From positions 1 through 62,007 of IMG/VR virus record IMGVR_UViG_3300024979_000006: a stretch of 62,007 nucleotides of DNA; one strand, given 5' to 3'. This document shows positions 19,232 through 44,700 of this stretch, in pieces. Each line of letters begins with the position of its first letter. Positions within the stretch are counted from its first letter, which is position 1. Source of the stretch: a virus (Duplodnaviria > Caudoviricetes). The notes under the pieces are model-generated. The model worked only from the letters and a program-made list of their open reading frames with translations. It did not search any database and had not been told where the DNA came from. The translations under genes were made by a program, and so were the position numbers.

Positions 19232-19726
19232 TCATTTTCCATATACCTCAAATCTAATTTTATCGTTATTACATTGTTCAGTATGCCTGAGTGTAAAATC
19301 ATTACTAATGATCGGAAAAAATCTTACTACGGTTGATAATCCCGGACAATACTCATTATCAATACGAGTTAGCAAAATCATGTCAGCGTAGTACATGGCT
19401 TCACGATAAATGCTTTCCCCTCCGACGATGTAGACGTCACGATAAAAACTCTTAGCACATACCATTAACGCTTCCTCGTGACTATTGACGAATAATACAC
19501 CGTCACGATTACGACCAAATCTTTCATTACTGGCTATTACAACGTTTAATCGATTCGGCAATGGTTTACGCCCCAATGAATCAAACGTGCCACGTCCCAT
19601 GATGACCGCATGTCCGTCTGTAATTTCTTTGAATCGTTTTAAATCTTCTGGTATGTGCCACGGTATTTTACCGTCCATACCTATTAAATTATTTTTATCA
19701 CATGCTGCTATAATTGATATTCTCAT
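19232..19726 (-). CDS. folA: Dihydrofolate reductase
   Basis: IG.DGKIPWHIPEDLKRFKEIT.GHAVIMGR.TFDSLG.KPLPNRLNVV, YIVGGESIY. Confidence 0.95.
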   Translation of the reverse strand: MRISIIAACDKNNLIGMDGKIPWHIPEDLKRFKEITDGHAVIMGRGTFDSLGRKPLPNRLNVVIASNERFGRNRDGVLFVNSHEEALMVCAKSFYRDVYIVGGESIYREAMYYADMILLTRIDNEYCPGLSTVVRFFPIISNDFTLRHTEQCNNDKIRFEVYGK

Positions 19727-19727
19727 G

Positions 19728-21200
19728 TTAAACCGCCATAAATGCTTTAATAAATTGCGCTGCGACCTGTGGGACTATTGCATTACCGTACCCTTTCAAA
19801 CGCATCACACGGGCTTCTTGCGTGTTGTCTGGATCGCTGCTATGCACCACTCCATGGGGAACCCCATCAACCAGCGGCTTAATGCCGGGTTTAATTGGCC
19901 TGTACTTGTTGTCTCGGCAATAGAGCCAGTCTGGATTAATCCAAGTTTGCACCCCGGATGATTCGACGTTAAGGCTATCGCTTGGGTTTGTAGGTGAGTC
20001 GATTTCTCCATCGGACGGCCTGATGTTCTTGGTGTTGCCCATCCTGCCAATGTCGTCAACTGAGCCGTTATGTCCAGCCTGTCCGTAGATAGCTTCCCGT
20101 TCCGAATGCGACCTCCCGAGTAACCACCCTTGTGATCCGTTGCCGATGTTGTCGGCCACCCAGTACAATCGTTGTCTGATGTGCGGGGCACCCGCGCTGT
20201 GTGCTCCCAATACTGTAATCCCGAAGGTGTAGCCTTCTTCTTCCATTGCTGACTGTAAATCATCGGTCCAACTTGACTGGTTTGATGCTTCAAATTCTCG
20301 GCTAATTTGTCCGATAGCGTTTGAGATTTCTGTCTGCGCTGATTCATTATCCCAGTTGATACTTCCAGTATCTTCTGTTCCCCCCACGTATTCATCATTA
20401 CATTCAAGGCATAAATAACTACTCTCGTATTCGTTTTTAGATAACCAATCGTGTTGTCTATCCTGTCCAATGATGGTGCGTTCCAAGCCCTCGGCGTTTC
20501 CAAATCGAAAGGTATCGCTGTTACTTCGCATAATCCTTTGTTTATTATCTCTTGAACCCAATCCCCCGTTATATCCGATTCCATCCCGCGCTCTTTCGCC
20601 CGATTGATTGCCACATTCGCTAATGCTTTCCCCCTGTTTTTCAGCCGCCATGCCTTGTATTCTTCCGACGATATTTCTTTCCTGGCCTGTTTCTTTTCCC
20701 GATAAGACTTGTTGCAAGGATTGCATATTTTCGCCACATTCCCTTTCCCATAGCGAGAGTATTCTGAGATAGGCTTGTCTATTTTGCAGCGATTGCAAAT
20801 TTTCGATTTCAGTTCGTAACTTTGGCTGTCTAATTGCGGCGCCGACTTGCTCACCGAAGATAACGGGGAAATTGCACTGCTTAACAATCTCGATAAAGTG
20901 CGGCAACAAGTGTCGTTCGTCGTCTTTTCCCTTCCCGGCTCCGGCAACACTGAAAGGCTGACAGGGAAGGCTTGCTGTACAGACTGGTCTTGAATCATCC
21001 CACCCGGCGAGTCTGAGAGCGTAAGACCATCCCCCGATTCCCGCAAAGAAGTGATGTTGTCTAAATCCGGCGAGTTCTTCTGGTCTAACATCAGTAATTG
21101 ATCGTTCATCTACATACCCATTTGCTATTATTTTCATTTTTATTAATTCCCTAAGCCAAGCCGCCGCTTTGGGGTCAAATTCGTTATAATAAGCCCACAT
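19728..21200 (-). CDS. C5-cytosine DNA methyltransferase alpha chain with ~185-aa in-frame insertion
   Basis: FFAGIGG (I), PCQPFS (IV), FGEQV (VI), GAPHIRQRLY (VIII), RLKGYGNAIVPQVA (X); motif IX lies in the overlapping frame. Confidence 0.9.
   Translation of the reverse strand: MWAYYNEFDPKAAAWLRELIKMKIIANGYVDERSITDVRPEELAGFRQHHFFAGIGGWSYALRLAGWDDSRPVCTASLPCQPFSVAGAGKGKDDERHLLPHFIEIVKQCNFPVIFGEQVGAAIRQPKLRTEIENLQSLQNRQAYLRILSLWERECGENMQSLQQVLSGKETGQERNIVGRIQGMAAEKQGESISECGNQSGERARDGIGYNGGLGSRDNKQRIMRSNSDTFRFGNAEGLERTIIGQDRQHDWLSKNEYESSYLCLECNDEYVGGTEDTGSINWDNESAQTEISNAIGQISREFEASNQSSWTDDLQSAMEEEGYTFGITVLGAHSAGAPHIRQRLYWVADNIGNGSQGWLLGRSHSEREAIYGQAGHNGSVDDIGRMGNTKNIRPSDGEIDSPTNPSDSLNVESSGVQTWINPDWLYCRDNKYRPIKPGIKPLVDGVPHGVVHSSDPDNTQEARVMRLKGYGNAIVPQVAAQFIKAFMAV
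19805..21109 (-). CDS. Overlapping-frame ORF: HNH-like endonuclease fused to the MTase beta chain
   Basis: KICNRC..CNPC Zn ribbon and SLDRIDNTIGY..TNTRVV...LN nuclease motif, followed by GWPT...GQLNPALSRWLMGFPMEW (motif IX-like); true start uncertain. Confidence 0.8.
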   Translation of the reverse strand: MNDQLLMLDQKNSPDLDNITSLRESGDGLTLSDSPGGMIQDQSVQQAFPVSLSVLPEPGREKTTNDTCCRTLSRLLSSAISPLSSVSKSAPQLDSQSYELKSKICNRCKIDKPISEYSRYGKGNVAKICNPCNKSYREKKQARKEISSEEYKAWRLKNRGKALANVAINRAKERGMESDITGDWVQEIINKGLCEVTAIPFDLETPRAWNAPSLDRIDNTIGYLKTNTRVVIYALNVMMNTWGEQKILEVSTGIMNQRRQKSQTLSDKLAENLKHQTSQVGPMIYSQQWKKKATPSGLQYWEHTARVPRTSDNDCTGWPTTSATDHKGGYSGGRIRNGKLSTDRLDITAQLTTLAGWATPRTSGRPMEKSTHLQTQAIALTSNHPGCKLGLIQTGSIAETTSTGQLNPALSRWLMGFPMEWCIAAIQTTRKKPV

Positions 21201-21209
21201 AAAATCTCC

Positions 21210-23330
21210 TTAAAATATCGGTTGTAACGCTAACATAAAACCCTTCTTTTTCGCTGTGCGTTTTTCTTGAATACCTAATCGACGCAAAACTTTAGCCACA
21301 GCATTAACGTCCATTTTCGTTGTGTGACCCCATCCACATTCAGTCAATATATCCGTGCATGTATAGAGTTTGCCGTGATCGAGTATCGTATCCAAATCAA
21401 ATTTTGAACGCATGGCATCCTCGATATGATCAATTTGTGAGTGTTTTAAATGGTGATGATTTATCATTTCGTCCATTTCAGCATCCGGCCACCACTGATC
21501 ACCCGCTAAATACAAACCCCATATTTCCGCCCATAATTGTTGCATATCGACAGAATGAAACGGATTTGTACCTATTATTTGCAACGGAAAAAATCGCCGG
21601 TTCCCGGTATCATCCACCAAAAATCGTGACTCGTTGACACTAGCGAAAAACGATGTCCGGCGCCGAAACTTGCACGGTAAACGGTCGTAGGGCAAGCGGA
21701 TCTCATCGACACAGGAGGACAGAAAACCTTTTAACCGGGCAATATCTGATTTTTTAAATGTACCGTCCAGTTCGCCCAATTCGCATATCCAGGCTGATAC
21801 TGCCGCTTTACGTGAATCTTTATTCTCGGTGTCCAGCGTGATGTTATCTATCACATATTCATTGTATTCTGGCGGCACCAGTGAACGAATCCAGGTCGTT
21901 TTCATCCGACCCTGACCGGATTGAAAAATCAGCACCGCTTCAAATTTTGGGACTTTGTGTACTATCGGTGATGATTCCCCCGCATCCATGGCTGCTACGC
22001 ATTGCACCAGCCACATACGTAACAATCGATTGCGGTATTCGACGTTATTAATATCGACCAGCACGGTATTATAAAAATCGTTTAATCGGCTCACATTGTC
22101 CCATGGTTTACCAGTAATAAAATCCTTGATGGGATTTACAACCTTGTTCATTAACAACGCGGTTATGCGTTCGGCTGTTTCTATCGGCACCTCATTAATT
22201 GCCAGCAACGATTTAATTTCTTGTAATTTTCCGTTGTCGCTGATGTCATTGATTACATTTTGATTAGCCGGGAAATCGATGCAATGTTTTTTCAACAGTT
22301 CATCGTAATAATACGTAATGCCATAATGTTTCAGTATACATGTCAGATTTAATGTCGATGCTTGCGCTTTGCCTCGCTTACTTCGATCAGGAATATCTGT
22401 TTCAGACAGCCGCATATTAAACGGCATATATTCGCCTTCCACGGTGCCGAATATTTCAGCCGGGTTTACCTGTAGACCTTTCTTTGGATTAATCCAGCCG
22501 TTACGCTGTGCTTTGGCGAATACCGCGCGGTGATCAGTACGGTCCCCGGTAAATGTATTCCAACGCCACATATCGTCTGGGTTATATTTATCGGATTTTT
22601 TGGACCATGCGTCCCATAATGCAAAACCGGCATCGCCCAGGCAGGCTAGATCCTGCCCAACACTGATCCAGGTTACTCGGTCGTCTGCTGAGATATGGCA
22701 CAACGCTGATTCCAGTTCACTAAGTGTCTCGTCTGTAACCTCCGAGACAAGCATGTTTTGCTGTTTTGAGTGTTGCGACAGCTCCGGGTACATTGGTGTC
22801 AGGTTAGGGACTAGATCAACGTAATTACCTAGCGAATGCTGACATTCGTAGATTACACCACGGACCGAACCGAAATAATACGTTTGCGATAACGTAAATG
22901 ATTCATGTGCTAATATGCCACCAAACGCGCCATTTAAACGCGCCATTAACTCTCTCCGTTGAGATGGTACGGTTTCCGCTGACAATGGAGCCAGGACGCG
23001 CCAACGTGGTTTTTCGGTCGTGTGACTTGGCGATGTGTAAACCAACGCATAGATACCGGCCAGATTGAGACATTGCACCGCAGTATCAACGGATACCTCG
23101 CCGCCATCGTAATCCCCTTCAAGCCCAGATATAGACAGCACGTTTGCGTCGTGACGGTATGACCAAGCTTCGGTAATCTGATTACCGAATGTAGCTAGTT
23201 TAATTAACGGTAATTCAGATTTTTCGTTGAATACCGCAGGATTAGCACAGTGCTGGTATAGCTGCTCCCAGGTTACATCATATTTTTCTAATGTATTCGC
23301 TTTGACAGTTGGGAAGATGGTTACTTGCAT
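21210..23330 (-). CDS. Primase (AEP-like + PriCT-2) fused to VirE/VapE-type helicase
   Basis: GDYD and YTSPSH..KPRWRV; DDRVTWISVG...WDAWSKKSDKY; QSGQGRMKT Walker A, WICELGEL, FLVDDTGNRRF. Likely start ATG 23330 (track gives 23384). Confidence 0.9.
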   Translation of the reverse strand: MQVTIFPTVKANTLEKYDVTWEQLYQHCANPAVFNEKSELPLIKLATFGNQITEAWSYRHDANVLSISGLEGDYDGGEVSVDTAVQCLNLAGIYALVYTSPSHTTEKPRWRVLAPLSAETVPSQRRELMARLNGAFGGILAHESFTLSQTYYFGSVRGVIYECQHSLGNYVDLVPNLTPMYPELSQHSKQQNMLVSEVTDETLSELESALCHISADDRVTWISVGQDLACLGDAGFALWDAWSKKSDKYNPDDMWRWNTFTGDRTDHRAVFAKAQRNGWINPKKGLQVNPAEIFGTVEGEYMPFNMRLSETDIPDRSKRGKAQASTLNLTCILKHYGITYYYDELLKKHCIDFPANQNVINDISDNGKLQEIKSLLAINEVPIETAERITALLMNKVVNPIKDFITGKPWDNVSRLNDFYNTVLVDINNVEYRNRLLRMWLVQCVAAMDAGESSPIVHKVPKFEAVLIFQSGQGRMKTTWIRSLVPPEYNEYVIDNITLDTENKDSRKAAVSAWICELGELDGTFKKSDIARLKGFLSSCVDEIRLPYDRLPCKFRRRTSFFASVNESRFLVDDTGNRRFFPLQIIGTNPFHSVDMQQLWAEIWGLYLAGDQWWPDAEMDEMINHHHLKHSQIDHIEDAMRSKFDLDTILDHGKLYTCTDILTECGWGHTTKMDVNAVAKVLRRLGIQEKRTAKKKGFMLALQPIF

Positions 23331-24874
23331 ATCTGGTTCACCCGGTCGTTTATTAGAGTTATGTAATCGGGATTTAATTCGCACAGAATCGAAAATCTGT
23401 TATGTTTGGCGGCAACGCCGCCCACTGTACCGCTGCCTCCGAATGGATCAATAACGGTTCCGAATACCGGACATCCTGCAAGTATGCAAGGCTCGATTAA
23501 ATCAGGTGGGAAGGTGGCGAAATGTGCACCCTTGTAAGGTTTTGTGGTTACTGTCCATACGGATCGTTTGTTTCGTGTTTCAGCGGGTTCGGGTAAATCC
23601 GCTTCACTTAAGCCGGTAGTTGAATTTTTTAAGTTTTCTTTCGTTCTAAAGTTATTTTCTTTGGAATTGTAACCTAACTCTCTATTACGATTTACCCCAT
23701 TAGGTCTACGTTTTACCGCTTTCATATTACCGTTAGTTTTTCCAGGTACACGGCTACTACCCGTTTGATTCTCAATATTTTGAGACAATCGCGCAATACT
23801 TGCGTCTGCCAATGGTTCACCTATCGCATCCGAATCAAAATAATACTTAGGCTTCTTGCTTAACAGGAAAATATATTCGTGCGCCTTGGTGCAGCGGTCT
23901 TTAACGCTCTCTGGCATCGGGTTTGGTTTGTGCCAAATAATATCTTGTCTCAAATACCATCCGTCGGCACGTAACGCAAAGGCAAGTATCCACGGAATAC
24001 CTATCAGGTCTTTGTTTTTTACGGTTGGTATGGTACACTGTGGCTTAACATAGGAGTGATTAAACCATGAAGAGACAAGTAAACAATACCCGTAAGTGCA
24101 TCGAGTGCAGTTTAGAAGTTCCTCGCAAAGTAATGCGGTGTCCTGATTGCAATAAAAAGTTTCTGCAACTGCGCCCAACATACTCTCGTACCGAAGAGCA
24201 TAAGAGAAAAATGAGCGAAGTGACGAAAGGAAAGCCAAAACAGCATCGCTCGGCTTCTGAAAACCCTGAAGTGGCGGTAAAGATTCAGAATTGGTGGACA
24301 GAAGAACGCCGTGAAGCTGCTCGACAACGTGGATTGCGTTTTGCACTTGATCCAGAATGGCGGTTAAAGATAGCCCTTTCTGTTTCTGGGGCAAGCAATC
24401 CTCGGTGGGAAGATGGTCGATCAGGAAAAGCATATTCTCCTGGATTTGCCGACAAAGTTCGTGAGCTTGTTCGAGAACGCGACGGGAATCAGTGCACCCA
24501 ATGCGGTTCCACAAAACACCTTTGCGTACATCATAAAGACTTTGAGAAAGTGATCCATGACCTTGACAATCTTGTTCTCCTTTGTCGTAAGTGTCATACG
24601 ATTGAACACGTCGAGCACTCGAAGAGTAAGAGTCTGAAATATTCAACCACAACGTCCCATCATCCCGCAGTATTCGCTTAACCTCTGCAAATACCTTAAC
24701 CATGTTGGCGATATACAACTCTGGTGTTTCCTCAAGTCCAATTTGATCATCATGTCCATAATCACGCAGTCCATAATACGGCGGCGATGTAACACAGCAA
24801 TTAATACTTTTGTCTTGAATTTGCCGCATTGATTCTAGGCAATCTCCCGCTAATACTTTGACAAAATTATTCAT
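23321..24874 (-). CDS. N4/N6 DNA methyltransferase (beta class) with ~200-aa in-frame insertion
   Basis: VTSPPY, KDLIGIPW..AFAL.ADGWYLRQDIIWHKPNPMPESVKDR, HFATFP, DPFGGSGT. Confidence 0.92.
   Translation of the reverse strand: MNNFVKVLAGDCLESMRQIQDKSINCCVTSPPYYGLRDYGHDDQIGLEETPELYIANMVKVFAEVKRILRDDGTLWLNISDSYSSSARRVQSYDTYDKGEQDCQGHGSLSQSLYDVRKGVLWNRIGCTDSRRVLEQAHELCRQIQENMLFLIDHLPTEDCLPQKQKGLSLTAILDQVQNAIHVVEQLHGVLLSTNSESLPPLQGFQKPSDAVLAFLSSLRSFFSYALRYESMLGAVAETFYCNQDTALLCEELLNCTRCTYGYCLLVSSWFNHSYVKPQCTIPTVKNKDLIGIPWILAFALRADGWYLRQDIIWHKPNPMPESVKDRCTKAHEYIFLLSKKPKYYFDSDAIGEPLADASIARLSQNIENQTGSSRVPGKTNGNMKAVKRRPNGVNRNRELGYNSKENNFRTKENLKNSTTGLSEADLPEPAETRNKRSVWTVTTKPYKGAHFATFPPDLIEPCILAGCPVFGTVIDPFGGSGTVGGVAAKHNRFSILCELNPDYITLINDRVNQICK
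24012..24056 (+). promoter_or_regulatory. Candidate promoter and RBS for the antisense HNH gene
   Basis: TTGTTT-16 bp-TACACT with TG extension (24031-24039); AGGAG at 24052-24056, 10 nt before ATG 24067. Confidence 0.55.
24067..24681 (+). CDS. HNH endonuclease (Zn ribbon + NUMOD3-like + HNH), antisense within the MTase
   Basis: CIEC..CPDC; TEEHKRKMSE; G..NPRWEDG; RERDGNQCTQCGS...VHH.D......DNLVLLCRKCHTIEH. Confidence 0.92.
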   Translation: MKRQVNNTRKCIECSLEVPRKVMRCPDCNKKFLQLRPTYSRTEEHKRKMSEVTKGKPKQHRSASENPEVAVKIQNWWTEERREAARQRGLRFALDPEWRLKIALSVSGASNPRWEDGRSGKAYSPGFADKVRELVRERDGNQCTQCGSTKHLCVHHKDFEKVIHDLDNLVLLCRKCHTIEHVEHSKSKSLKYSTTTSHHPAVFA

Positions 24875-24875
24875 A

Positions 24876-25193
24876 TCACTTCACCGACATGAGCTTTTCA
24901 AGTGCTTTTTTCCTCAATTCGTCGCTTATTTTTTCGGCCCTGGGATCTTTGGCAACCAACCCTTGTGCTATTATTTCCAGATCACCTAACCGTAACGCTT
25001 CGCCCATTATCGCCCGACGTAAATTACTCACAGTACCAAAATACTTGGTTATCAACGTAGCACTGACGCCACTGTGATCACTAATCTGTTTGCGGGTAAT
25101 GTTTCGGTATCCGTGTTCCCTTGATACAATTAACGCATGTCCGAGTAGCTGGCGCTTACGGTCCACCGGATTCATTCTTTGCTGTTCGTTCAT
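24876..25193 (-). CDS. TetR-like HTH regulator
   Basis: RKRQLL..AL..SREHGY.NITRKQISDHSGVSATLITKYFGT. Confidence 0.75.
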   Translation of the reverse strand: MNEQQRMNPVDRKRQLLGHALIVSREHGYRNITRKQISDHSGVSATLITKYFGTVSNLRRAIMGEALRLGDLEIIAQGLVAKDPRAEKISDELRKKALEKLMSVK

Positions 25194-25664
25194 TTAAAAT
25201 TCCCCTGTTGTGAATGCTGCATAACCGCCAAGCGACGTAACAACATCGCTCCATTTTTTTTGCGCTTGAGTGTGTTTATCGTTTTCTGAATATTTCCAGC
25301 CGGCGCATTTAACTTCCAAGCTGACAAACTGGCCGATTACCATGCCCGAATGAAATGGTGTTATTGTTATCGGGCGTATACCGATTAAATCGTGTGATTT
25401 AATTTTCTGATTCATGGCGGCTGAATCATTAGCTAAACCGAACCTGACGAAATTGCCATTTTCCATCATGCCAGCACCGCGGTTATTACGCCATAAACGC
25501 CACCCACGTTTAGATGCTTCCAGCCTGATCTCCGTTTGAATACCCGACTCGCCGGTTTCGGCGCTACCGGAAATAATATCGCACTCGGCAATTAATAACC
25601 GGCGTAACTCGACCACCGCATCAGCGGAAATTCTGTATTTATGCGCCCATTGACTGATTAACAT
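25194..25664 (-). CDS. VRR-NUC-type nuclease
   Basis: ESGIQTEIR...LWRNNRGA...VRFGL...SHDLIG...FVSLEVK...AQKKW...LGG.A. Confidence 0.85.
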   Translation of the reverse strand: MLISQWAHKYRISADAVVELRRLLIAECDIISGSAETGESGIQTEIRLEASKRGWRLWRNNRGAGMMENGNFVRFGLANDSAAMNQKIKSHDLIGIRPITITPFHSGMVIGQFVSLEVKCAGWKYSENDKHTQAQKKWSDVVTSLGGYAAFTTGEF

Positions 25665-25900
25665 TTAGGCACCCGCTTGTTTTTGAACACATCTGATTTT
25701 TTAATAGTTTCCATAAAATCAGATAGTCGTTTATTTTTAAACTCGTCGGGTTCGGGTATAGTGCGTATTTTAAAAACGGTTGTTAATTCAGGCAATTTGA
25801 AAACATGATGGCCGTTTTCTACCGAGTAGTCTCCAGGTTGATTGCCCATCGCCAAGTGTATCTGGTTTGTCAGATATTTAAGCTGTTCTTTTTTGTTCAT
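25658..25900 (-). CDS. Hypothetical protein
   Basis: Likely start ATG 25900 (MNKKEQLKYL...), just after the upstream stop. Confidence 0.55.
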   Translation of the reverse strand: MNKKEQLKYLTNQIHLAMGNQPGDYSVENGHHVFKLPELTTVFKIRTIPEPDEFKNKRLSDFMETIKKSDVFKNKRVPKC

Positions 25901-25904
25901 AAAT

Positions 25905-26642
25905 TTATATCTCGCAAAATGTGCAACCTGACGTTGCGTTTCGTTCTTGTCCTGATTTTGATGTCCAAACGGACTTGCCAATTTGATTTTCTAATCGTAA
26001 AACAATTTCATATCGTTCAGCACCTACGGCATCTTGTTTGAAATCACGTTCTTTGTTTGCATCACCTGACGCCAGGCATGGGAAACAACCGACTCGATCT
26101 GAACCTTGTGAATATAGTGGATTGTATCGTCCGTTTAATTTTTCCAATACTTCTTCAGTTGTCCATTCAACAATCGGAAGTCTAAACATAACTCCACGTT
26201 TTTCTAAATATTTAGGAAACTCCGATTTCATAAAATCATGGGGTGCGATTAATTCTTCATTCAACCGCCCATAATATCGAGTTGCTCTTGCACTCGATTC
26301 TCCTGTTCTGACTCCAATCCAAACCTCAAAACCATGGCCTAGAATTAATGACAGATCAGCATAATAACGTTTAGCGGGTCTGATTTTTAAATCTCGTGTG
26401 CAAAATCGACTCCGCATGAGCGGAAATCGTTTGCGCTTCAAAACTTCTTCTTCAACCGATGACACGTTGGTGGTGACTATCGGCACGTTATAATGTTGTC
26501 GCATCCATTCGATGTGTTGGTATGTTAATGGATGTTCCCAACCTGTATCGTTAAATAAACAATGGACATCGCGATCTGTTTCTAAGGCAAGTTCCAAACA
26601 GCATTGCGAATCTTTACCGCCCGATAATGGTACTATTATCAT
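25905..26642 (-). CDS. PAPS reductase-like (adenine nucleotide alpha-hydrolase) protein
   Basis: SGGKDS PP-loop, DTGWEHP, RFCT..LK..P, GVR..ES..R, NPLY.QG.DRVGCFPC, C-terminal CxxC. Confidence 0.85.
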   Translation of the reverse strand: MIIVPLSGGKDSQCCLELALETDRDVHCLFNDTGWEHPLTYQHIEWMRQHYNVPIVTTNVSSVEEEVLKRKRFPLMRSRFCTRDLKIRPAKRYYADLSLILGHGFEVWIGVRTGESSARATRYYGRLNEELIAPHDFMKSEFPKYLEKRGVMFRLPIVEWTTEEVLEKLNGRYNPLYSQGSDRVGCFPCLASGDANKERDFKQDAVGAERYEIVLRLENQIGKSVWTSKSGQERNATSGCTFCEI

Positions 26643-29160
26643 TTATAATCCTTGCTATTAATTCATCTGCTTCTTTACGGGGTAACGCTTGCGCCGATAG
26701 CACATCTACGCCAAACGTTAGGTAAAATTGCCGCTGTGCTCGTGGTATGTCAGTCATCCCTGCCGCCCAGGTAGCTATTGCATCGCGTAGTTTATCCAGT
26801 GACGCAAGATGTTCTCTGTGCCGTTTGTCAATCGAGTTTACGATAACTTGTGTTGCGCCCCAGGGATACGTGGGTTCACCCCTAGTTTTATCGATATTGC
26901 CTTGCAGTTTGGCAATAAATTCGGGTGTCAGTAATTGCAGGTCCCCGTCTACATATTCAGGTGCTATACGACTAACAGGTGTTGCTGTATGACCGCAAAA
27001 CGGACACGTCATACCCTGAATACGCTCATAAACAGCGGTACATTCCGGGCAGGTTTTTACCTGAATTATGTCAGTGGGTGCAGAACGTCCCGATTTTTCG
27101 CGGGAGTCCAGCGTCCATTTAATTATTTTATCCGGTAAACCATGTCGCAACAGAATATTATTCACATGATCATTAATTATTCCACAGTTGTGAACGAGCA
27201 ATCCATTTGCAGTGTACCTTTGTAAAGTCCCTGCATTGATAATGTCCCATACTTCCCTTTTGGTTTGCAGGAAGGCGTATACCATCGCTGGATTATTTCC
27301 TCGTCTGTATAAATACGGATCAATCTGTTCAATGTCGAATCTGCGTAACGAATATGCGGATATTTTTCTCTGAAGTCGATAAAACGTTCTCGACACATCC
27401 CGTTTGATCTTCGAGTATTGTTTTGTTGTTTCGGTATAGTAACCCAATGAATATTCCCAGGTTCGTAATGACCGTTGTTGTTTATTCTGTCTAATTGAAT
27501 ATTTCGATTTTCTGGAATACCTAAATTTTTTGCTATCCAATGCGCGGCTTCGTTCGCAGACTCGAATTTGAATAATATCCCTCGTCCACCGTAATCCTTC
27601 CACCTGATGTTGTTTAAATTTTGACAACGATCTTGTTGCGCTTGACACCTTTGATATAGCCATTTTGGTACTGTTACAGGTTCTCGCTTGTTGCAATTTT
27701 GGCAAGCCTTTGTATTCGGACGTTTCCTCATATTGTGGTATAAGTGCATAAATTTGTGATTGCAGTTTTGACAACATACCTCTACTTTCAAACGATCCGA
27801 ACTTCCTTCTGTTTTGTTGGATATTATTATCAACGAACCGAATTGGAGTCCTACCAATTCCGGTATTAATAATCGAGAGCTGTCTAATAGCCGCTTCATA
27901 GAATGTTTTGAATCCTTCATTTGTCATAACCTCATGGTCTAATGTTGCAGTTAAACCAGAGTATGTAATTGTTGATTTTATACCCTGGCATATTGCACCT
28001 TGATGGCTTACGAATGATACGCCGTCCCAAACTTTATGGTCAAGTGTGATATTCTCAATATTTACTAAACCAACATCTGTTAATATTTTCGATCCTCTAG
28101 CAATACAGGTTTTACCATCCTTGCGACGCAACGCCCTGCCCATTTGTTGACGCGCCAATGCGAGGGAGAACGTGGGGCGTGTCATACTCACGACTTCGAT
28201 GGCCGGTAAATCGAATCCTTCACCGAACAGATCCACATTTGTGAGCTGTTTCAGATCACCTCGGCGCAACCTGGCGATACATGCCAACCGGTGCGCATCC
28301 GTGGATCGTGAACTAACCATTTCCGCAGGTATCCCCTTCTGCCTGAACGCGGCGGCTTGATCCTCGGCGCTTTCGATGTCTACGCAAAACGTAACGCCTA
28401 TCTTTCCGGCGGCGGTTTTTAAATATTGATCAACGGTATTGCCGTAAATCTTTTTACTCTTGTGCATGGCATCGCGCAAACCAGGTTGTGAATAATCACC
28501 ATCGGCGCCAAGTTTTACGGTACTTAAATCCATGTCGTCGGTTTGTGGCGCATAAATCATGTAATCCGACAGAAACCCACGACTAATTAAATCGCGCATC
28601 CCTGGCGCTTGTAGCATGACATCAAATAAACCGTCAGCATGACGCCCTAAGCCACGCCCGTCTGCCCGTTGCGGTGTAGCGGTAACGCCCAAGCCCTTGG
28701 CATTGGGAAACATATTAATAGCGCGGCCCCACTTATTTTTAACCAGAAGGTGATGGCACTCATCAAGAACCCACAAACCAACCTGTTTAAACCAACGATC
28801 AGCCGGATCCATCCGAATCAGCGTATCGACTCCAGCAACCGCGCATTGTGAATTAACATCGTAATAGGATCGTCCCGTTTCGGCCATGTGCAACTCGATA
28901 CATAAACCAATCACGTTTTTTGGTGCGATAACACGATGTCGGACACCATCGCGCGCCAACGCCAACGATATTTGTGAAACCAGTTCTTGCCGGTGAGCAA
29001 TCGCCACCGACGCACCTTGGAATTCGTGGATAATATGAGAAAAAATAACAGTTTTTCCAGATCCAGTCTCACTCACCGCACAAACGTTTTTATATCCTTC
29101 ATTCCAGGATTGATAAATTTCATCAACTAATTGTTGTTGAAAATCGAATAACTGAAACAT
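26614..29160 (-). CDS. SF2 (DEAH/RadD-like) helicase with intein
   Basis: TGSGKT, DECHH, TATP.RADG, LFGEGFDLP, QQMGRALR, C-terminal CPEC..CPFC. Confidence 0.93.
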   Translation of the reverse strand: MFQLFDFQQQLVDEIYQSWNEGYKNVCAVSETGSGKTVIFSHIIHEFQGASVAIAHRQELVSQISLALARDGVRHRVIAPKNVIGLCIELHMAETGRSYYDVNSQCAVAGVDTLIRMDPADRWFKQVGLWVLDECHHLLVKNKWGRAINMFPNAKGLGVTATPQRADGRGLGRHADGLFDVMLQAPGMRDLISRGFLSDYMIYAPQTDDMDLSTVKLGADGDYSQPGLRDAMHKSKKIYGNTVDQYLKTAAGKIGVTFCVDIESAEDQAAAFRQKGIPAEMVSSRSTDAHRLACIARLRRGDLKQLTNVDLFGEGFDLPAIEVVSMTRPTFSLALARQQMGRALRRKDGKTCIARGSKILTDVGLVNIENITLDHKVWDGVSFVSHQGAICQGIKSTITYSGLTATLDHEVMTNEGFKTFYEAAIRQLSIINTGIGRTPIRFVDNNIQQNRRKFGSFESRGMLSKLQSQIYALIPQYEETSEYKGLPKLQQARTCNSTKMAISKVSSATRSLSKFKQHQVEGLRWTRDIIQIRVCERSRALDSKKFRYSRKSKYSIRQNKQQRSLRTWEYSLGYYTETTKQYSKIKRDVSRTFYRLQRKISAYSLRRFDIEQIDPYLYRRGNNPAMVYAFLQTKREVWDIINAGTLQRYTANGLLVHNCGIINDHVNNILLRHGLPDKIIKWTLDSREKSGRSAPTDIIQVKTCPECTAVYERIQGMTCPFCGHTATPVSRIAPEYVDGDLQLLTPEFIAKLQGNIDKTRGEPTYPWGATQVIVNSIDKRHREHLASLDKLRDAIATWAAGMTDIPRAQRQFYLTFGVDVLSAQALPRKEADELIARIINDNSTIIGR
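27177..27920 (-). CDS. HNH homing endonuclease in an alternative frame inside the intein
   Basis: LVGLQFGSL.I, CCQNC..CQNC, RC.N.N...WKDYGGRGI, LDRINNNGHYEPGNIHW....QQNNTR; GAGGT RBS 8 nt before ATG 27920. Confidence 0.9.
   Translation of the reverse strand: MKDSKHSMKRLLDSSRLLIPELVGLQFGSLIIISNKTEGSSDRLKVEVCCQNCNHKFMHLYHNMRKRPNTKACQNCNKREPVTVPKWLYQRCQAQQDRCQNLNNIRWKDYGGRGILFKFESANEAAHWIAKNLGIPENRNIQLDRINNNGHYEPGNIHWVTIPKQQNNTRRSNGMCRERFIDFREKYPHIRYADSTLNRLIRIYTDEEIIQRWYTPSCKPKGKYGTLSMQGLYKGTLQMDCSFTTVE
27187..28107 (-). mobile_element. 307-aa intein in the helicase
   Basis: KT|CIARGSKILTDVGLVNIENI...LTATLDHEV...VWDIINAG...YTANGLLVHN|CGII; removal restores GKT-CGIINDHVNN. Confidence 0.93.
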
Positions 29161-29194
29161 TGTTAATTTACTCTCAAATAAATAGTGTGACGCA

Positions 29195-29260
29195 AGAATA
29201 CTGCATTAAAAAAATAATTGCAAATAATTATTGACTCTTGGGTAATTTATGAAATAAAAT
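29195..29260. promoter_or_regulatory. Back-to-back divergent sigma70 promoters
   Basis: Minus strand: TTGCAA (29218-23)-17-TATTCT (29195-200). Plus strand: TTGACT (29231-36)-18-TAAAAT (29255-60). Confidence 0.65.
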
Positions 29261-29299
29261 TTAGCCGTAGTTTAGATAAAATCAATAGGAGATAAAACA

Positions 29300-29902
29300 A
29301 TGTTACTGAAATTTGAAGTAGAAACAAATGAAGAATATGCAGTGAGAGATGCGCTAGATTTATTGCAGTATTTATGCAAAGAGTTTCCTAGATATGATGA
29401 CGAATACATCGTACTCAAACCAGAAAAACCCGCACCGGAACCTGAAGAAATTGCAATCCCAGGTCTCGATGTAGATTCTGAAGGTTTGCCATGGGACGCA
29501 CGGATTCATTCGTCGTCTAAAGCCAAGAACAAAGATGGCTCGTGGAAACGTATGCGTGGTGTTTCTGATGACGAGTTTTATAAAGTGGCGCAGGAGATAC
29601 GTGATACGCTATCAATATCTAATGATATAAACCCGATTTTTAGGGGTGAGTCTGGCGTATTGGATGAACCAAAACAATCTAACATCGACCCGTCAGAAAT
29701 ATTCAAACCGGCTGATGAACAACCAACACCAACCCCGACATATCTTGAACTCGTTTCGATTCTCGGCCAGGCAACTAAAGAAAACCGGATCGATAATACA
29801 AAAATTCAAGAAGCTGTTACTGGCGTCGGTTTGGCGGCGTTTACGCAATTGGCAGTTCGTATCGATTTAATTCCTGCGTTCATCACTAGATTAGGACTCT
29901 AG
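29300..29902 (+). CDS. Hypothetical replication-module protein
   Basis: AGGAG RBS; conserved-looking DSEGLPWDARIHSSSK..NKDGSWK..RGV. Confidence 0.8.
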   Translation: MLLKFEVETNEEYAVRDALDLLQYLCKEFPRYDDEYIVLKPEKPAPEPEEIAIPGLDVDSEGLPWDARIHSSSKAKNKDGSWKRMRGVSDDEFYKVAQEIRDTLSISNDINPIFRGESGVLDEPKQSNIDPSEIFKPADEQPTPTPTYLELVSILGQATKENRIDNTKIQEAVTGVGLAAFTQLAVRIDLIPAFITRLGL

Positions 29903-38769: not shown

Positions 38770-41700
38770 TTAATTCAATTTGCGAGACAATCTGTCTTGC
38801 TGGTTTCGTAACTGCTCAATCCGTCTACGCTTTGCGTCTGGTGATTGATTACTACGTTCAACACTACGAATTATATCATTAAGTTTTGTAACAGCCTGTT
38901 TAACGTGTTCAACAGATTTATATTTTAGTATTGATTCTTTGTTCTCGCTTCTAAATTCTCGCGCTTCTGCTATTTTGCCTTGTTTCTTCAGGTTATTATA
39001 CGTACCGTAGGCTTGTTCAAGTTCTTTTGCTTGTTCGTACATTTGCGATACATACCGACTTCGTGCGCCTTTTAGACTAGACGCCATGTTACCCGTCAAC
39101 ACTTTTGTTAAATCTGATGCAGGTCTTGACGGTTCGTCCGATACACCACGCATTGCCATATCAACACCACCCATAACAAACGCGCCTAACCATGAAAAAT
39201 AAGCTCTGGTAAGGTGATCTATTTGCACAGGTGATAATGTTCCATTGCTTGCTTTACTCAGCTCACGCGCTACCAGTGTCGTATCGCCTCTGTATCGGTA
39301 TTGCGGCTCTAAACGCTCCATGCCCATAGTTTCTATTGGTCGCCCGGTAAAACTATCGTTGTTCGCGTACAGGTCAATAATCGGCTTGATCATTTGTGGT
39401 ATGGGATTCATAGCCAACTGATCGCCTAGCACCTTAGCAACACGCTCTTTAAACCGTTGTCCGGTCATCTCATCATCAAACATTAACTCGGCGGTACGTT
39501 CGGCCAGTGTAGCCAATGCGCCGATTTCAAACGGCTTTGGTATTCTATATGCGGTATCACCAAACTTAAACCACCAGTAGTTGTCTCGGTCCCAATCCTC
39601 ACGCTTCTTCCAATCGTCGTCGTCGTGGTATTGTGTCAATAGTGCCAATGATGCGAGTGTTACTGCCCCAACAACCGTAGCCATTCGCGCCTTGTCCTCG
39701 TTCGTCGCCTTTCCGAGTTTATACATACCCTGTAATCTGGCGTTCATAAACGGTACGATCTTGGTTAATATCCGTATCGATGAGAATGTACCCTGTAACG
39801 AAAAGTCCATCAAATCACGCGCCATTAACGCGGCCTGTCCTTCGCTGACTCCCTGTTGTCTGAGTTGATGATACAGTGACATCCGGTTAATTTCTTCACC
39901 ACGATTACCAAGTTCATTGTATGCGGCGAGAGCCGGCTCAAGCGTAGCATCGTAAAACGCGCGGATCTTGGATTCGTTATCCAAAATACTCGCTTCTTTA
40001 TTGCCGAGCTTGATTAACTGTTGTGTACGTGCTGATTCCGATCCTTCCAGCATGGTGCCGAACCGGATCAAACCACCTGCGGCCAGAGCACTAACGTATT
40101 CAGGATTCGTTTTATCGGTAAGTTGCCAACCTTCTTTCAGGTTCTTACCGATGTTATACGACATGCCTGATCCTGTAGCAATCGATTGAATGGAATCTCG
40201 TATCAGGTTTCGCACTTTGAAAAATGGTGATGCGGTAACGCCCATAGTTAGCATAGACTTAAACGCGCCTAATACACTCATGGCACCGCCCTTGATACCT
40301 GCATATTCCAGTGAACTTATTGCAGCCAATACATAGGGATCATCGACTACAAATTCTTTTTTTGCGCCGTTGTCCTTATACCAAACCGTTTTCTTTGTTC
40401 CTGGTGGTAACAACGTACCATTCGATGCAACGTACTCGCCCATATTCGACGCTACTTGTTTTGCTACACCATGATTAACCGCAGCTTCCAATGTGGCTTT
40501 AGCCGCCCGATTCTTGGCTGACGCATCAATCAAATGTGACCAGTTCATCAACGTGTTTTCAAGCAGGTCTGAATTTAATTTATCAGATCCACCCTTTAAA
40601 CGTTTGATTGCTTCTTGCCTGATCAATCCATTTTTAACATCACCACCACGGACACCGGCCTCGTCATCCATCGACCGATAGAACGGAACATAGAATTCGT
40701 TTTCCCAAAATTGCCGACCGGCACCGTCGATTAATCCTGATTGTTCAGCAATATCCAAAGCGTTCTTATTAAATTCGTTGAACTTAATCAGCGTGTCTTT
40801 GTATGCGTCCGTGCGGTTACGTGTTGTTTGCCCATTAGCCAGCTTGTAATCAAAATCAAGCGTACCATCGGATAATGTTTTCAATGCGTCTATCTTTGGC
40901 TGATCAAACAGGTTTTCACGATCCTCGGCTAGTAACTTCTCAGCACGATTAGCAGAAACCCACCAAAGAAAATCGTGTGTTTCTTTGCCTATCGGCGCGA
41001 AAACATTTTTAATGACACCGCCCGTAGTGTCGCTGTTGTATGAACCGTCTGCATTGATGCTTAATTTTCCGTAACGCATAAACGTTTCAAATGCACCGCT
41101 TGAGCCTTTTGATAACCGTGACAGCATGTAGCCGTTTTCAGATATTTCTTTAATCGGTGCAAACTGATCGAATACGCCCTGCACCCATTTTTTGGCGAAC
41201 GTCTTGCGCATATCTTGTAACTGAGATTTCAATGATTTCTCGGTTACAGTCCGGCCTGTTTTCTTGAATGCGTCCAGTTGCTCTTGCGTCCGTTGACGGT
41301 TCGTGTCGCCGGTCACAATCTCGCGGTCTTGCATGATAGAGAAACGAACATCATTGTTAGATGTGCTGAAATCGCCGTTATTCCCAATTGCCGATTTTAT
41401 TTGGCTGGGGGAGAAGGCGACATACACGTTATGTCTTCCAGCACTTGTGTAATATTCAAACGCACCGTAACCGCCGTCCTCGTAGTCCAGAATCACCACA
41501 CCATCCCGTCCATCAGCGCGCGCTTTTTCAAGCCACTCTGCTTGTTGCACATGGTTAAATGCGTCCCCTTTTGCGTTTATTTCCAAAGGGTTTTTTAATG
41601 CCACGTAGGTGGCTATAACATTCGCTCCTGTGGTGGGAGAATTTGGATTTACGCCTAGCTCTCCAGCGATACGATCAGTTACTTGCCCTGGGCCTTCTTC

Positions 41701-44700
41701 TGGATCATACATGTCATTTATTCGGTCTGCGTATGCTATGCGCCGCTCTGCGTCTGTGTACTCCCTGTCTTCATCGAGATTGTAGTCATATTCTATAAAA
41801 CTTACTCTCCTGAACTGGGAATCCATACGCGCAATAAAACGGGTAAAATACTCTTCCGGCAGCTTGTTTAACGCATCTAAAAAACCCTCCCTGTTAAAAG
41901 TATCCGATCCTCCGGCGTACACACCTCCAGCTATACTAGAACTGGAGGTGAAGAATACCCCATCATCCCAAGGCTGAACGCCTTTTTTGAATACCCCGTT
42001 TTCTATATCGGATTTGGTTCCATGATAAACAACTAATGGTCGTCCTTGCTCATCAACAACCTTACTATCCCCAAACCAGCGGTAAAAATTCCTAACCTCT
42101 TCCTCAGTCATTGCAATCGGCTTGCCATTTGAATTAAGCGTAGAGCGTTCCTTACCATCAATCATCAGCGTCTTATTCTTGATACCGAACAACGGCATCC
42201 CTTCGCCCAGTATCTTGGCTTTCATTTCTGGCGTGATGATTATTGCGGGTCGCCCGTTTACCGAATCCACTTCACCCCCCATCTTCTTAACGATTTCACG
42301 CGCGGCCTGTGTGATTAGTGCCGGCTTACCTTCTGCGTTCAAACCGTTCTCATTACCATACATCGCGTGCGTCCATGGCGAGTCGATTTTTAAATCAGAA
42401 CCGGATAATTCACGCAAACCTGTATTTTCGTTCGGTTTCGATTCCAATAATTTCTTCGCTGCATCTTTGCCAATGTAATCGGCAATCTTATCTTCTGGCA
42501 CATTGGGTATTACGTGCGTATCGTCGTTATTATCGACATACATTAATTCCTGATAATCGCCACCACGATACTCAACTTTTGAAATTGACTTACTCAAATC
42601 GTACAGATCAGCTTGTTGTGCGCCCGTAGACCACGCTACGGACGTTTTACCGTCATCGATAGCTTGTGATATAGCTTTCTTGAGTAGTAACGATATGTAA
42701 GCGTCAGAAGGTTTATTTTGCGCATTGGTTACGAATGGGGCGGGTGGGACGCCTTTACCAAACCCATCCTTCCTACCCGCTTGTAACCGTAGGCTCTGGA
42801 TCTCGTTGATCAACAAACCGTCGCCGCGGGTATCGAACCGCATCCAGGCAATTTGTTTCCCCTTTCCGGCATCACCAAAATGAGTCGTGTCGGATTCATC
42901 GAATTTTTCAACCGTGGGAATCGTAACAACCAGTTCCTTATAATTCGTGCCGCCTGGAATGGTGTAGTTGGAATCAGCGTATTTTGCATCATCATCCAAC
43001 ACCACATCTTCAACCCGCACCGCGTTATCGTTCAGATAATCCAGTACATCTTGTTTCGATACCTTACCCTTGCCGGCACTATCCAGGTAATCGTTTAATC
43101 CGGTCCAGTACACCTCATCCGCTTTGATTCCCATTTTGCTCATGTTACCGGCTAACCAGAGTTTCGTTTGTTGCGCATTACCCGTGAATGCTTTATCCGG
43201 TGCGCCCATGATTCCCTTGCGTAACGCTGAGTAGAATCGTGCAGTTGTGTTACTGGCTAAAAGATTTCCTGAATCTTTGAAATCAGGATCAAATGCGGCA
43301 TTGATGCTGCGGATTTGGTTTGGATTGAAAAGCGTTACTTCCGCATCCATTACATAATTCCCATTAGCTTTTTGTCTTTTTACTGAAACAGAGTCATAAC
43401 CGTTACTACTCAATATTTCTTTTACTCGATTACCACCAATCCCACCGTCACCTAAAAAGTCGCTAAATGATAGGGTTGTATTTTTTAAGACATCAGTCCT
43501 TACTATTGTTTTTCCTATCTCAATTAAATCCTTTCTCTGTTTAACTAATGACCTGTATTTTTTTTCGTCAGCTTGGTTATTAAAGTCCTCTGGAGGTGCA
43601 AACTTATACTTGTGGTCGAAATATTCTAGTTTTTTATTAATAGTCTTTATTTGTTTTTCTATCTGAGTGCCACTAACATCATGGAATTGCGCTAAAAATT
43701 CTGACTCTGTTTCATTCCATCCTGTTAGTTTTAATAATTTTTCAGCAAGTTCGGATTTGCTGTTCATTTCCCATGAATCGTTAATATTAAAAGTGTTACC
43801 TTTTTTAATATGCAACGGATAAATAACAGGATTTCCACCAATCCTATCCGCTGCGTTAAGTGCGTACGCATACGCATCATTGGTTATTTTTGTTACACTG
43901 ATTCCTGAGCCAAACCATCCATTATTAAAAGTAGACGCACCTTGTTTATCTAAATCAAATTCTTTTATGTCTTGGTTTGTACCATGATAATACGTCCTAT
44001 CAACATCAAACCCCATCGCCTTCGCACGTTCCATACGTGCCGCTTGTGACATATCAAGTCCCTTCGCCTTGGCACGTAACCATTCCTCTGCTTCCCCTGC
44101 ATCTGTGCCTTTATAACCTTGCGCTTTGGCTGATTTAAGTATCGTTTCGTTACCACTCGTAGTCTGACTATTCAACGTACTCGGTGCCGAACGTAACGCT
44201 GTTTGCGCCATATACACCAGGTCTTTGGTATTCAGACTAAACGCGAACTTATCACCGAATACTTTGCGTATCGCGGACCGGATGAACGCGATGATTCGTT
44301 GTGTTATGGATAACTTCGGATGATACTGAACCAGATATGCGGCTACTTCTTCATTGACAAACGCGGCGGGTGTATTCTCAGGAACACGGGCAAATGCGGC
44401 TTGTACATCCTTATCAGTCTCGCGTAATTTATTCAGATCATTGAGTATCGATTGAAACTCCTTGGAATCACGGTTCAACTGTAGAGCATGGACACCCAAC
44501 TCATGCAGCATCAATCCGCGCACGTTGTCGGTTGTGTCGATGTTTTCAGGGATGAAGTAGGTTACACCGTTCTTTGGATTAAAAAACGCTTGCGCCTTGC
44601 CGTTGTTGCTGTATTTGGCGATTCGACTTATATCATTCGCACCAATAAACTCGACCTTACCCGTTGCCAGTAATGAATCGACCCAGGATTTACTAAACTC

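Follow-up and report, generated by a model that had tools for sequence, protein, structure and literature searches.

To our knowledge, homing endonuclease genes are thought to persist within other genes only by means of splicing, in introns and inteins, or where the pieces of a split gene still work. The 62,007-bp virus record IMGVR_UViG_3300024979_000006 (Caudoviricetes), which was analyzed over its entire length (the window) and has an estimated completeness of 96%, raises the question whether such a gene can also live inside a protein gene without either. Here, an HNH endonuclease gene is located wholly inside, and antisense to, an uninterrupted DNA methyltransferase (methylase) open reading frame (ORF). 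Judged from its sequence, this is very probably an HNH homing-endonuclease gene with an extended −10 promoter of its own, which sits antisense in a variable surface loop of the methylase and is part of neither an intron nor an intein.

The HNH Gene Lies Antisense in an Unbroken Methylase Reading Frame

The host ORF (23321..24874, minus strand) codes without a break for a protein of 517 amino acids (aa). Pfam identifies it as N6_N4_Mtase (PF01555, E 4.7e-44), matching in two stretches that are approximately 200 residues apart with an insert between them. Motif IV (SPPY) precedes motif I (FxGxG), as in the beta class, which assigns the protein to the beta-class N4/N6 DNA methyltransferases; solved relatives are CcrM, M.MboIIA, M.RsrI and M.PvuII. 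The N-terminal core comprises residues 1–83, from the SPPY motif to LNISDSY (24626..24874, minus), and the C-terminal core residues 284–517, from KNKDLIGIPW to the end, including the FxGxG S-adenosylmethionine (AdoMet) motif (23324..24025, minus). Across 40 aligned methylases, of which 30 carry the insert and 10 are empty, S30, P31 and P32 are invariant, and D476, P477, F478, G480, G482 and T483 (DPFxGSGT) are at least 90% conserved.

The read-through insert between the two cores (methylase residues 84–283; 24026..24625, minus) consists of the HNH gene together with its proposed promoter, in reverse complement. Read in the methylase frame, it matches no Pfam domain of any kind. Between positions 24000 and 24700 the methylase frame contains no stop codon and the HNH frame four, all beyond the HNH ORF; the other four frames contain 7–18. 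The HNH gene (24067..24681, plus strand, 204 aa) starts at methylase residue 270 and stops at residue 65. Its last 56 nucleotides (nt; 24626..24681, plus) are antisense to the conserved methylase block ...LWLNISDSY, and relatives of the HNH protein stop approximately 15 codons before the HNH stop of the window. ORF and Pfam analyses thus confirm what a preliminary description, made from the letters alone, had reported: an antisense HNH gene inside an uninterrupted methylase ORF, a methylase loop of approximately 200 aa without a stop, and some 18 final HNH codons antisense to conserved methylase sequence.

The HNH protein matches PF01844 with its residues 143–182 (24493..24612, plus; E 6.8e-5, 23.4 bits with a curated cut-off of 21.4). 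This catalytic domain is modeled with a predicted local distance difference test score (pLDDT) of 91–96 at residues 131–160. At the N-terminus, residues 11–28 form the zinc ribbon CIEC...CPDC (24097..24150, plus; pLDDT 92–93 at residues 11–30). Altogether, 19 PHROGs families match the protein at E ≤0.01 (best E 4.8e-13), of which 15 are annotated as HNH endonuclease, two as homing endonuclease, one as terminase small subunit and one as function unknown. There are 16 called HNH homologues with identities of 48–71%. Residues C143, C146, H155, H156, N168, C173, C176, H177 and H181 are invariant (n = 17 homologues), and we take them to be the His-His, the Asn and the two CxxC pairs of a beta-beta-alpha metal finger. 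The preliminary description had seen a zinc ribbon, a NUMOD3-like part and an HNH part in this protein. The first and the last were found; NUMOD3 (PF07460) has no Pfam match at E ≤0.01 in the protein of the window, and only the distant relative P0138 contains it.

Methylase homologues are mostly 306–390 aa long and lack the insert. Six long homologues (P0002, P0003, P0004, P0008, P0010 and P0011) have their extra length at the same place. The loop is variable, with 0–59 aa, in empty alleles, compared to 178–229 aa in insert-bearing ones, and the much shorter loop that had been expected for homologous methylases was thus found. In the set used for the tree described below, loop length is bimodal, with 25–59 aa in 113 empty alleles and 178–229 aa in the insert-bearing ones; locus L019 has 118 aa. 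Using the methylase-frame insert alone as query, only the protein of the window and P0002 were matched, which does not amount to a census; the first insert of P0002 is 100% identical to that of the window. The best DNA matches of the window (X1–X3) are freshwater sediment and freshwater metagenomes, which may represent the sample of origin. Among the cultured phages of INPHARED there is no near DNA relative; four weak HNH matches were found there and no isolate with such a layout.

The Methylase Frame Is Open Across Relatives

By means of the alignment of the HNH homologues, 114 loci were fetched (31 viral, 80 metagenomic and three genomic). In 61 of them both methylase halves flank the HNH gene on the other strand, and in all 61 these halves share a single frame that no stop interrupts. 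The same holds for 48 of 48 loci after those with identical HNH DNA were dropped, and in all of these 48 the HNH gene is located between methylase residues 83 and 284. Accumulating methylase-frame stops in related genomes, which the preliminary description had named as evidence that would contradict a mobile element in a tolerant loop, are thus absent from every locus with both flanks. If loci cut by a contig end are included, one antisense phase, the same throughout, is free of stops in 59 of the 61 non-duplicate in-methylase loci. In it, each methylase codon reverse-complements positions 2 and 3 of an HNH codon together with position 1 of the codon that follows. The remaining two antisense phases of the in-methylase loci contain 1–17 stops. 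HNH relatives outside a methylase are never stop-free in the phase in question (0 of 31; 1–14 stops each).

An open frame might also be a mere by-product of HNH gene composition, in a methylase that is itself split or dead. Chance can produce long antisense ORFs in GC-rich DNA, and the lineage of L067 and L072 does have stops in the methylase phase. Permutations argue against this explanation. Synonymous codons were shuffled within each of 50 in-methylase genes, including that of the window, such that protein and codon usage were kept; ten other genes and L005 were left out because their tblastn match ran beyond a stop codon. A mean of 3.96 antisense stops per gene was expected and none was observed in any gene, the median share of stop-free permutations being 0.003. 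For the HNH gene of the window, 2000 such permutations gave a mean of 6.9 antisense stops and not a single stop-free sequence. In that phase, the 30 free-standing HNH relatives that were tested contain 5.4 stops per 100 codons. Furthermore, a shared frame of the two methylase halves, expected by chance in one of three cases, is seen in all 61 loci. The ratio of non-synonymous to synonymous substitution rates (dN/dS) among insert-bearing methylase cores is 0.09–0.26 where dS is computable, with non-synonymous differences of 0.22–0.27 and synonymous differences of 0.60–0.84. An open frame arising from composition alone, in a broken methylase, is in our judgment extremely improbable.

In the high-GC loci L067 and L072/L073, the HNH gene lies antisense between methylase pieces that are separate ORFs, and the methylase phase contains two to three stops. 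Here it is the direct antisense phase that is open, which may be an effect of GC content.

Selection Maintains Both Frames

Comparison of 47 embedded HNH genes gave pairwise differences of 0.33, 0.33 and 0.59 at codon positions 1, 2 and 3. Position 3 is the most variable one, and the HNH frame therefore behaves as a normal protein gene. HNH position 3 corresponds to position 2 of the methylase frame, so that in this frame the second position varies most. Where HNH identity is 0.38–0.74, the identity of the methylase-frame peptide is 0.18–0.45. The amino acid constraint thus sits in the HNH frame, and the methylase frame is constrained merely to remain open.

The open frame leaves its own trace in the HNH protein. 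Every possible coding of a dipeptide of the type F-[IMTNK] produces an antisense stop. Such dipeptides are absent from 8658 embedded residues (22 ± 4 expected), and 48 of them occur in the 30 free-standing relatives tested. The constraint is therefore reciprocal, with the open methylase frame feeding back on the HNH protein sequence, and selection maintains both frames.

The composition of the loop was analyzed using a Markov chain conditioned on zero stops and on the codon make-up of each gene. In the read-through peptide, 44 of 47 loci have less tryptophan and 42 have more leucine. Compared to the methylase core of the same locus, the third codon position of the HNH gene is richer in T (45/47) and poorer in C (43/47). 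This bias is ambiguous and may reflect foreign codon usage or selection for a hydrophilic loop.

No Intron or Intein Was Found in the Insert

Alternatively, the insert might be removed before the mature protein is made, either by RNA splicing of an intron that carries an antisense endonuclease gene or as an unrecognized intein. Antisense endonuclease genes are indeed described inside nuclear group I introns (PMC9548176). The same methylases moreover host inteins at other sites. Introns need no open in-frame host frame, yet all 61 loci with both halves have one. In the interval 19500–29500 no Rfam family of group I or group II introns was found at E ≤1. The insert contains no Hint or other Pfam intein domain, and the junction residues are variable, with no conserved nucleophiles.

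The structural model points in the same direction. The AlphaFold2 model of the methylase, built on the alignment of 40 methylases, has a confident core (136 residues at pLDDT ≥90; 73–98 per 10-residue block for residues 1–80). In the insert, pLDDT is below 50 at residues 88–167 and 266–283, and long helices with a pLDDT of 55–77 are predicted between these stretches. The insert is thus modeled as helices and disorder, and no Hint-like fold is seen. Pfam, junctions and model therefore agree with the preliminary description, which had noticed no intein motifs in the loop, and we consider removal of the insert by splicing very unlikely.

Patchy Presence and Decay Point to a Mobile Element

A tree of the methylase core was calculated from 143 rows and 274 columns, excluding insert columns; it contains 30 insert-bearing and 113 empty alleles. 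Insert-bearing methylases are scattered among empty ones, which corresponds to at least six changes of state, of which well-supported branches require five. Both counts are minimum values because empty alleles were sampled only near the methylase of the window. The window and P0002 are nested in a clade of empty alleles (support 97). A second sample of 80 viral loci started from the methylase; both halves were present in 79, and the loop was short in 75 of the 79. Truncated HNH remnants were identified in L019 and L089, where the methylase frame is still open, and the remnant in L017 has decayed further. Such a succession of invasion, decay and loss is as expected of homing elements. The element is very compact, with its promoter box directly next to the conserved KPKDLIG codons and its HNH stop directly next to GDSY. 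Open frame, lack of a splicing signature, scattered presence and remnants together support the earlier proposal of a non-splicing mobile element in a tolerant loop.

The constant association of the nuclease with one methylase family, together with selection on both genes, might instead suggest a restriction-modification-like or addiction pair, in which the nuclease cuts unmodified DNA and nesting enforces co-inheritance. HNH-type restriction enzymes exist. Such a pair is difficult to reconcile with close methylase homologues that mostly lack the nuclease (113 of the 143 tree rows and 75 of the 79 methylase-first loci) and with decayed nuclease remnants within intact methylases. Inteins, which are homing vehicles of another kind, occur at other conserved sites of the same methylases, and the HNH protein has a modular build of zinc ribbon and helical DNA-binding region; free-standing homing enzymes have a similar make-up. 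A pair of this type therefore appears improbable to us.

Predicted Expression Signals of the HNH Gene

The putative extended −10 promoter box TGGTACACT (24031..24039, plus) lies 36 nt before the ATG at 24067, its −10 hexamer ending 27 nt before the ATG. It is followed by the Shine-Dalgarno sequence AGGAG (24052..24056, plus), 10 nt before the ATG. TGGTAYAYT is present at the same offset in L003, L006, L033–L036, L040 and L044, and motifs resembling a Shine-Dalgarno sequence occur in this close subgroup at the place of the AGGAG. Altogether, the window and its close subgroup, eight of the 56 in-methylase loci, have the extended −10 box 36 nt before the ATG and then a Shine-Dalgarno sequence.

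Within −80 to +30 of the HNH start, TGNTANNNT was found in 39 of 56 in-methylase loci, where 0.1 per such interval is expected; the background is 3.3e-5 per nt. In 28 of the 56 it occurs as TGNTANNNT-N6-ATG in the HNH frame. This spacing would be expected of a leaderless mRNA beginning at the ATG. The conservation of an extended −10 box before the HNH start in relatives supports the predicted promoter. The preliminary description had given the gene its own promoter and ribosome binding site. Both motifs are present and conserved in relatives, and a generic scan does not flag the promoter (see below).

Metatranscriptome Logan contigs cover 23699–23941 and 24159–24544 (X7) as well as 24658–25011 (X12), and no joint that skips the insert was seen in them. 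Strand and ends are not shown by these contigs and DNA carry-over is possible; they are therefore evidence neither of expression nor against splicing.

How the Element Might Persist

In the mechanism that we propose, the whole element is kept stop-free in the methylase frame, so that the ribosome would read straight through it. The product would be a full-length and presumably active methylase with a poorly structured passenger loop of approximately 200 residues. The HNH enzyme would make a cut or nick close to the loop of empty methylase alleles, and repair would copy the element into the cut allele (homing). Plus-strand transcription would begin approximately 7 nt after the −10 box of the window, and at the A of the ATG in loci with TGGTATAAT-N6-ATG. 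The plus-strand transcript might also act as an antisense RNA against the methylase-primase operon.

Several observations weigh against this proposal. Foldseek comparison of the HNH model with the PDB gave only weak, domain-level HNH matches, all with E >0.03. L067 and L072, which form one high-GC lineage, have stops in the methylase phase and a methylase that is split or dead; the open frame is therefore not obligatory. The loci were found by HNH similarity and belong to one insertion lineage, which makes them related by shared ancestry and not independent samples. They reach HNH identities as low as 36%, and each substitution along that divergence is an opportunity for a stop. Some of the core divergence behind the dN/dS values may be older than the insertions. 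The loop-composition test revealed no clear extra selection on loop chemistry and no clear hydropathy shift. Concerning expression, 20 of 56 loci are without the strict promoter pattern, several of them having near matches. A generic sigma-70 consensus scan misses the promoter of the window, and its hits are no better than those in shuffled sequences; the same is true of its terminator hits.

The Methylase Family Carries Further Inserts

A second antisense HNH family is located at another site of the methylase, between SVWTV..KPY.G and HFATFP (PF01844, E 1.8e-7 and 1.9e-10). In six of six non-duplicate loci (L116/L196, L198, L199, L120/L200, L202 and L203) the same antisense phase (phase 1) is stop-free, in open methylase ORFs. 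These ORFs have 578–942 codons where they are whole on the contig and 294 codons in L202, which is cut by the contig end. L120 contains both antisense HNH elements within one ORF of 942 codons. P0002, which is near-identical to the methylase of the window, has an extra insert at the second site that is absent from the window, and a differing stretch directly before it.

Further along the methylase ORFs of L035 and L063, Pfam identifies Intein_splicing and LAGLIDADG domains, and in L051 LAGLIDADG only. Further in-frame inserts extend the methylase ORFs of L035, L063, L051, L042 and L034 to 816–927 aa. If the long methylase ORF were not translated, such downstream inserts of the intein type would be of no consequence. 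The methylase family is thus a hotspot for several kinds of mobile elements.

Other arrangements were observed as well. Near methylase residue 40, at the GLRDYG site, L033, L061, L088 and L043 have another HNH gene, here on the strand of the methylase itself. At this site the N-terminal methylase piece and the downstream ORF are in different frames, the latter starting anew with M-N-[IF]-Y-R-K-S... (L033, L070, L075 and L081). From these sequences, the arrangement looks like a split-gene or intron-type insertion. L119 (2941–4551, plus) has a sense, in-frame insert of approximately 200 aa between FALQ and GFYLRQDIIW with no obvious splicing blocks; the LAAMLDAEGSI in it is presumably a LAGLIDADG-like motif. 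A distant HNH relative with 36% identity lies outside any methylase in L090 (281–1036, minus). It overlaps an open frame of 251 codons in the direct antisense phase, in which no domain is recognized.

Nested Endonuclease Genes Elsewhere in the Window

Two more endonuclease genes of the window are nested in host genes, both on the strand of the host. A helicase ORF (26614..29160, minus, 848 aa) contains the insert CIARGS...LLVHNC, which we read as an intein-like motif; Pfam has no match for this insert. Inside it, in another frame, is an HNH endonuclease gene (27177..27920, minus, 247 aa; phrog_374, E 7.8e-20), and the helicase frame is open throughout this nested gene. A C5 DNA methyltransferase ORF (19728..21200, minus, 490 aa; PF00145, phrog_363) has an insert of approximately 190 aa, the match to phrog_363 spanning residues 1–489 against a profile of 327 positions. 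In another frame, this insert codes for an endonuclease (overlapping ORF 19805–21109, minus) that matches phrog_3322 (E 2.9e-26) and also PHROGs of endonuclease VII and HNH endonucleases.

We examined 18 relatives of these two nested genes (30 loci less the eight weakest and four duplicates). Among relatives of the helicase element, 9 of 14 have a stop-free host (+2) frame, over 599–994 codons; among those of the C5 methylase element, 2 of 4 do. For both genes, the loci without an open host frame are distant, partial matches.

The window also contains a single ORF of 3633 aa (38770–49671, minus), whose C-terminal 850 residues match phrog_18222 (function unknown, E 9.6e-214); patches of it match PHROGs of the ParB C-terminal and of endolysin.

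Comparison With Known Systems

The gene itself is a homing-type HNH gene; new is its way of living inside the host gene. In the literature covered, which comprised few subscription journals, no endonuclease gene that overlaps an open host ORF, or is read antisense within one, was found. Antisense endonuclease genes were found there only inside group I introns (PMC9548176).

We think it reasonably likely that there is a third general route besides introns and inteins, in which the endonuclease gene uses another frame of the host gene, antisense or sense, and the element is kept stop-free in the host frame. If this is true, host proteins of this route would be made with a passenger loop, and one 62-kb phage would carry three such elements, in the N4/N6 methylase, in the C5 methylase and, inside an intein-like insert, in the helicase. 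The N4/N6 methylase family would host at least two antisense HNH lineages at two sites. The arrangement with an open host frame has been kept by selection across HNH divergence to approximately 36% identity, and it is a natural, long-lived antisense overlap of approximately 190 codons whose reciprocal constraints can be measured. Because gene callers retain the host ORF as the longer one, nested endonuclease genes are missed; long "variable loops" of phage enzymes may conceal mobile genes. The inserts would also mark loop sites of beta-class methylases that tolerate insertions of 200 residues.

Phages contain free-standing HNH homing genes, including those in "genes in pieces" splits, such as the T-even mob genes and the split nrdA of Aeh1. 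The element described here resembles them in combining an HNH enzyme with an N-terminal DNA-binding module and in its fixed place in a conserved phage gene, with patchy presence and decayed copies. In contrast to these, the endonuclease gene neither splits nor flanks its host gene; it lies antisense within the host ORF, which stays stop-free and in frame.

With intein-borne homing endonucleases it shares the in-frame insertion in a conserved gene that leaves the host ORF open, and inteins are even present in the very same methylase ORFs (L035 and L063). It differs from inteins in having no Hint splicing domain and no junction nucleophiles. Its endonuclease is encoded on the other strand, so that the peptide of the host frame is something other than the enzyme and probably stays in the protein.

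Endonuclease genes in group I introns include ones in nuclear rDNA (PMC9548176) that are likewise antisense to the host gene and have their own expression signals. Here, no ribozyme was found, and the host frame is open across the element, a property that introns do not require.

Overprinted antisense gene pairs of viruses and bacteria are similar in having two long ORFs on opposite strands with reciprocal sequence constraints. Unlike in these pairs, one partner here is a mobile element, and the other frame, instead of a new protein, gives the passenger loop of an older enzyme, a loop constrained only to lack stops.

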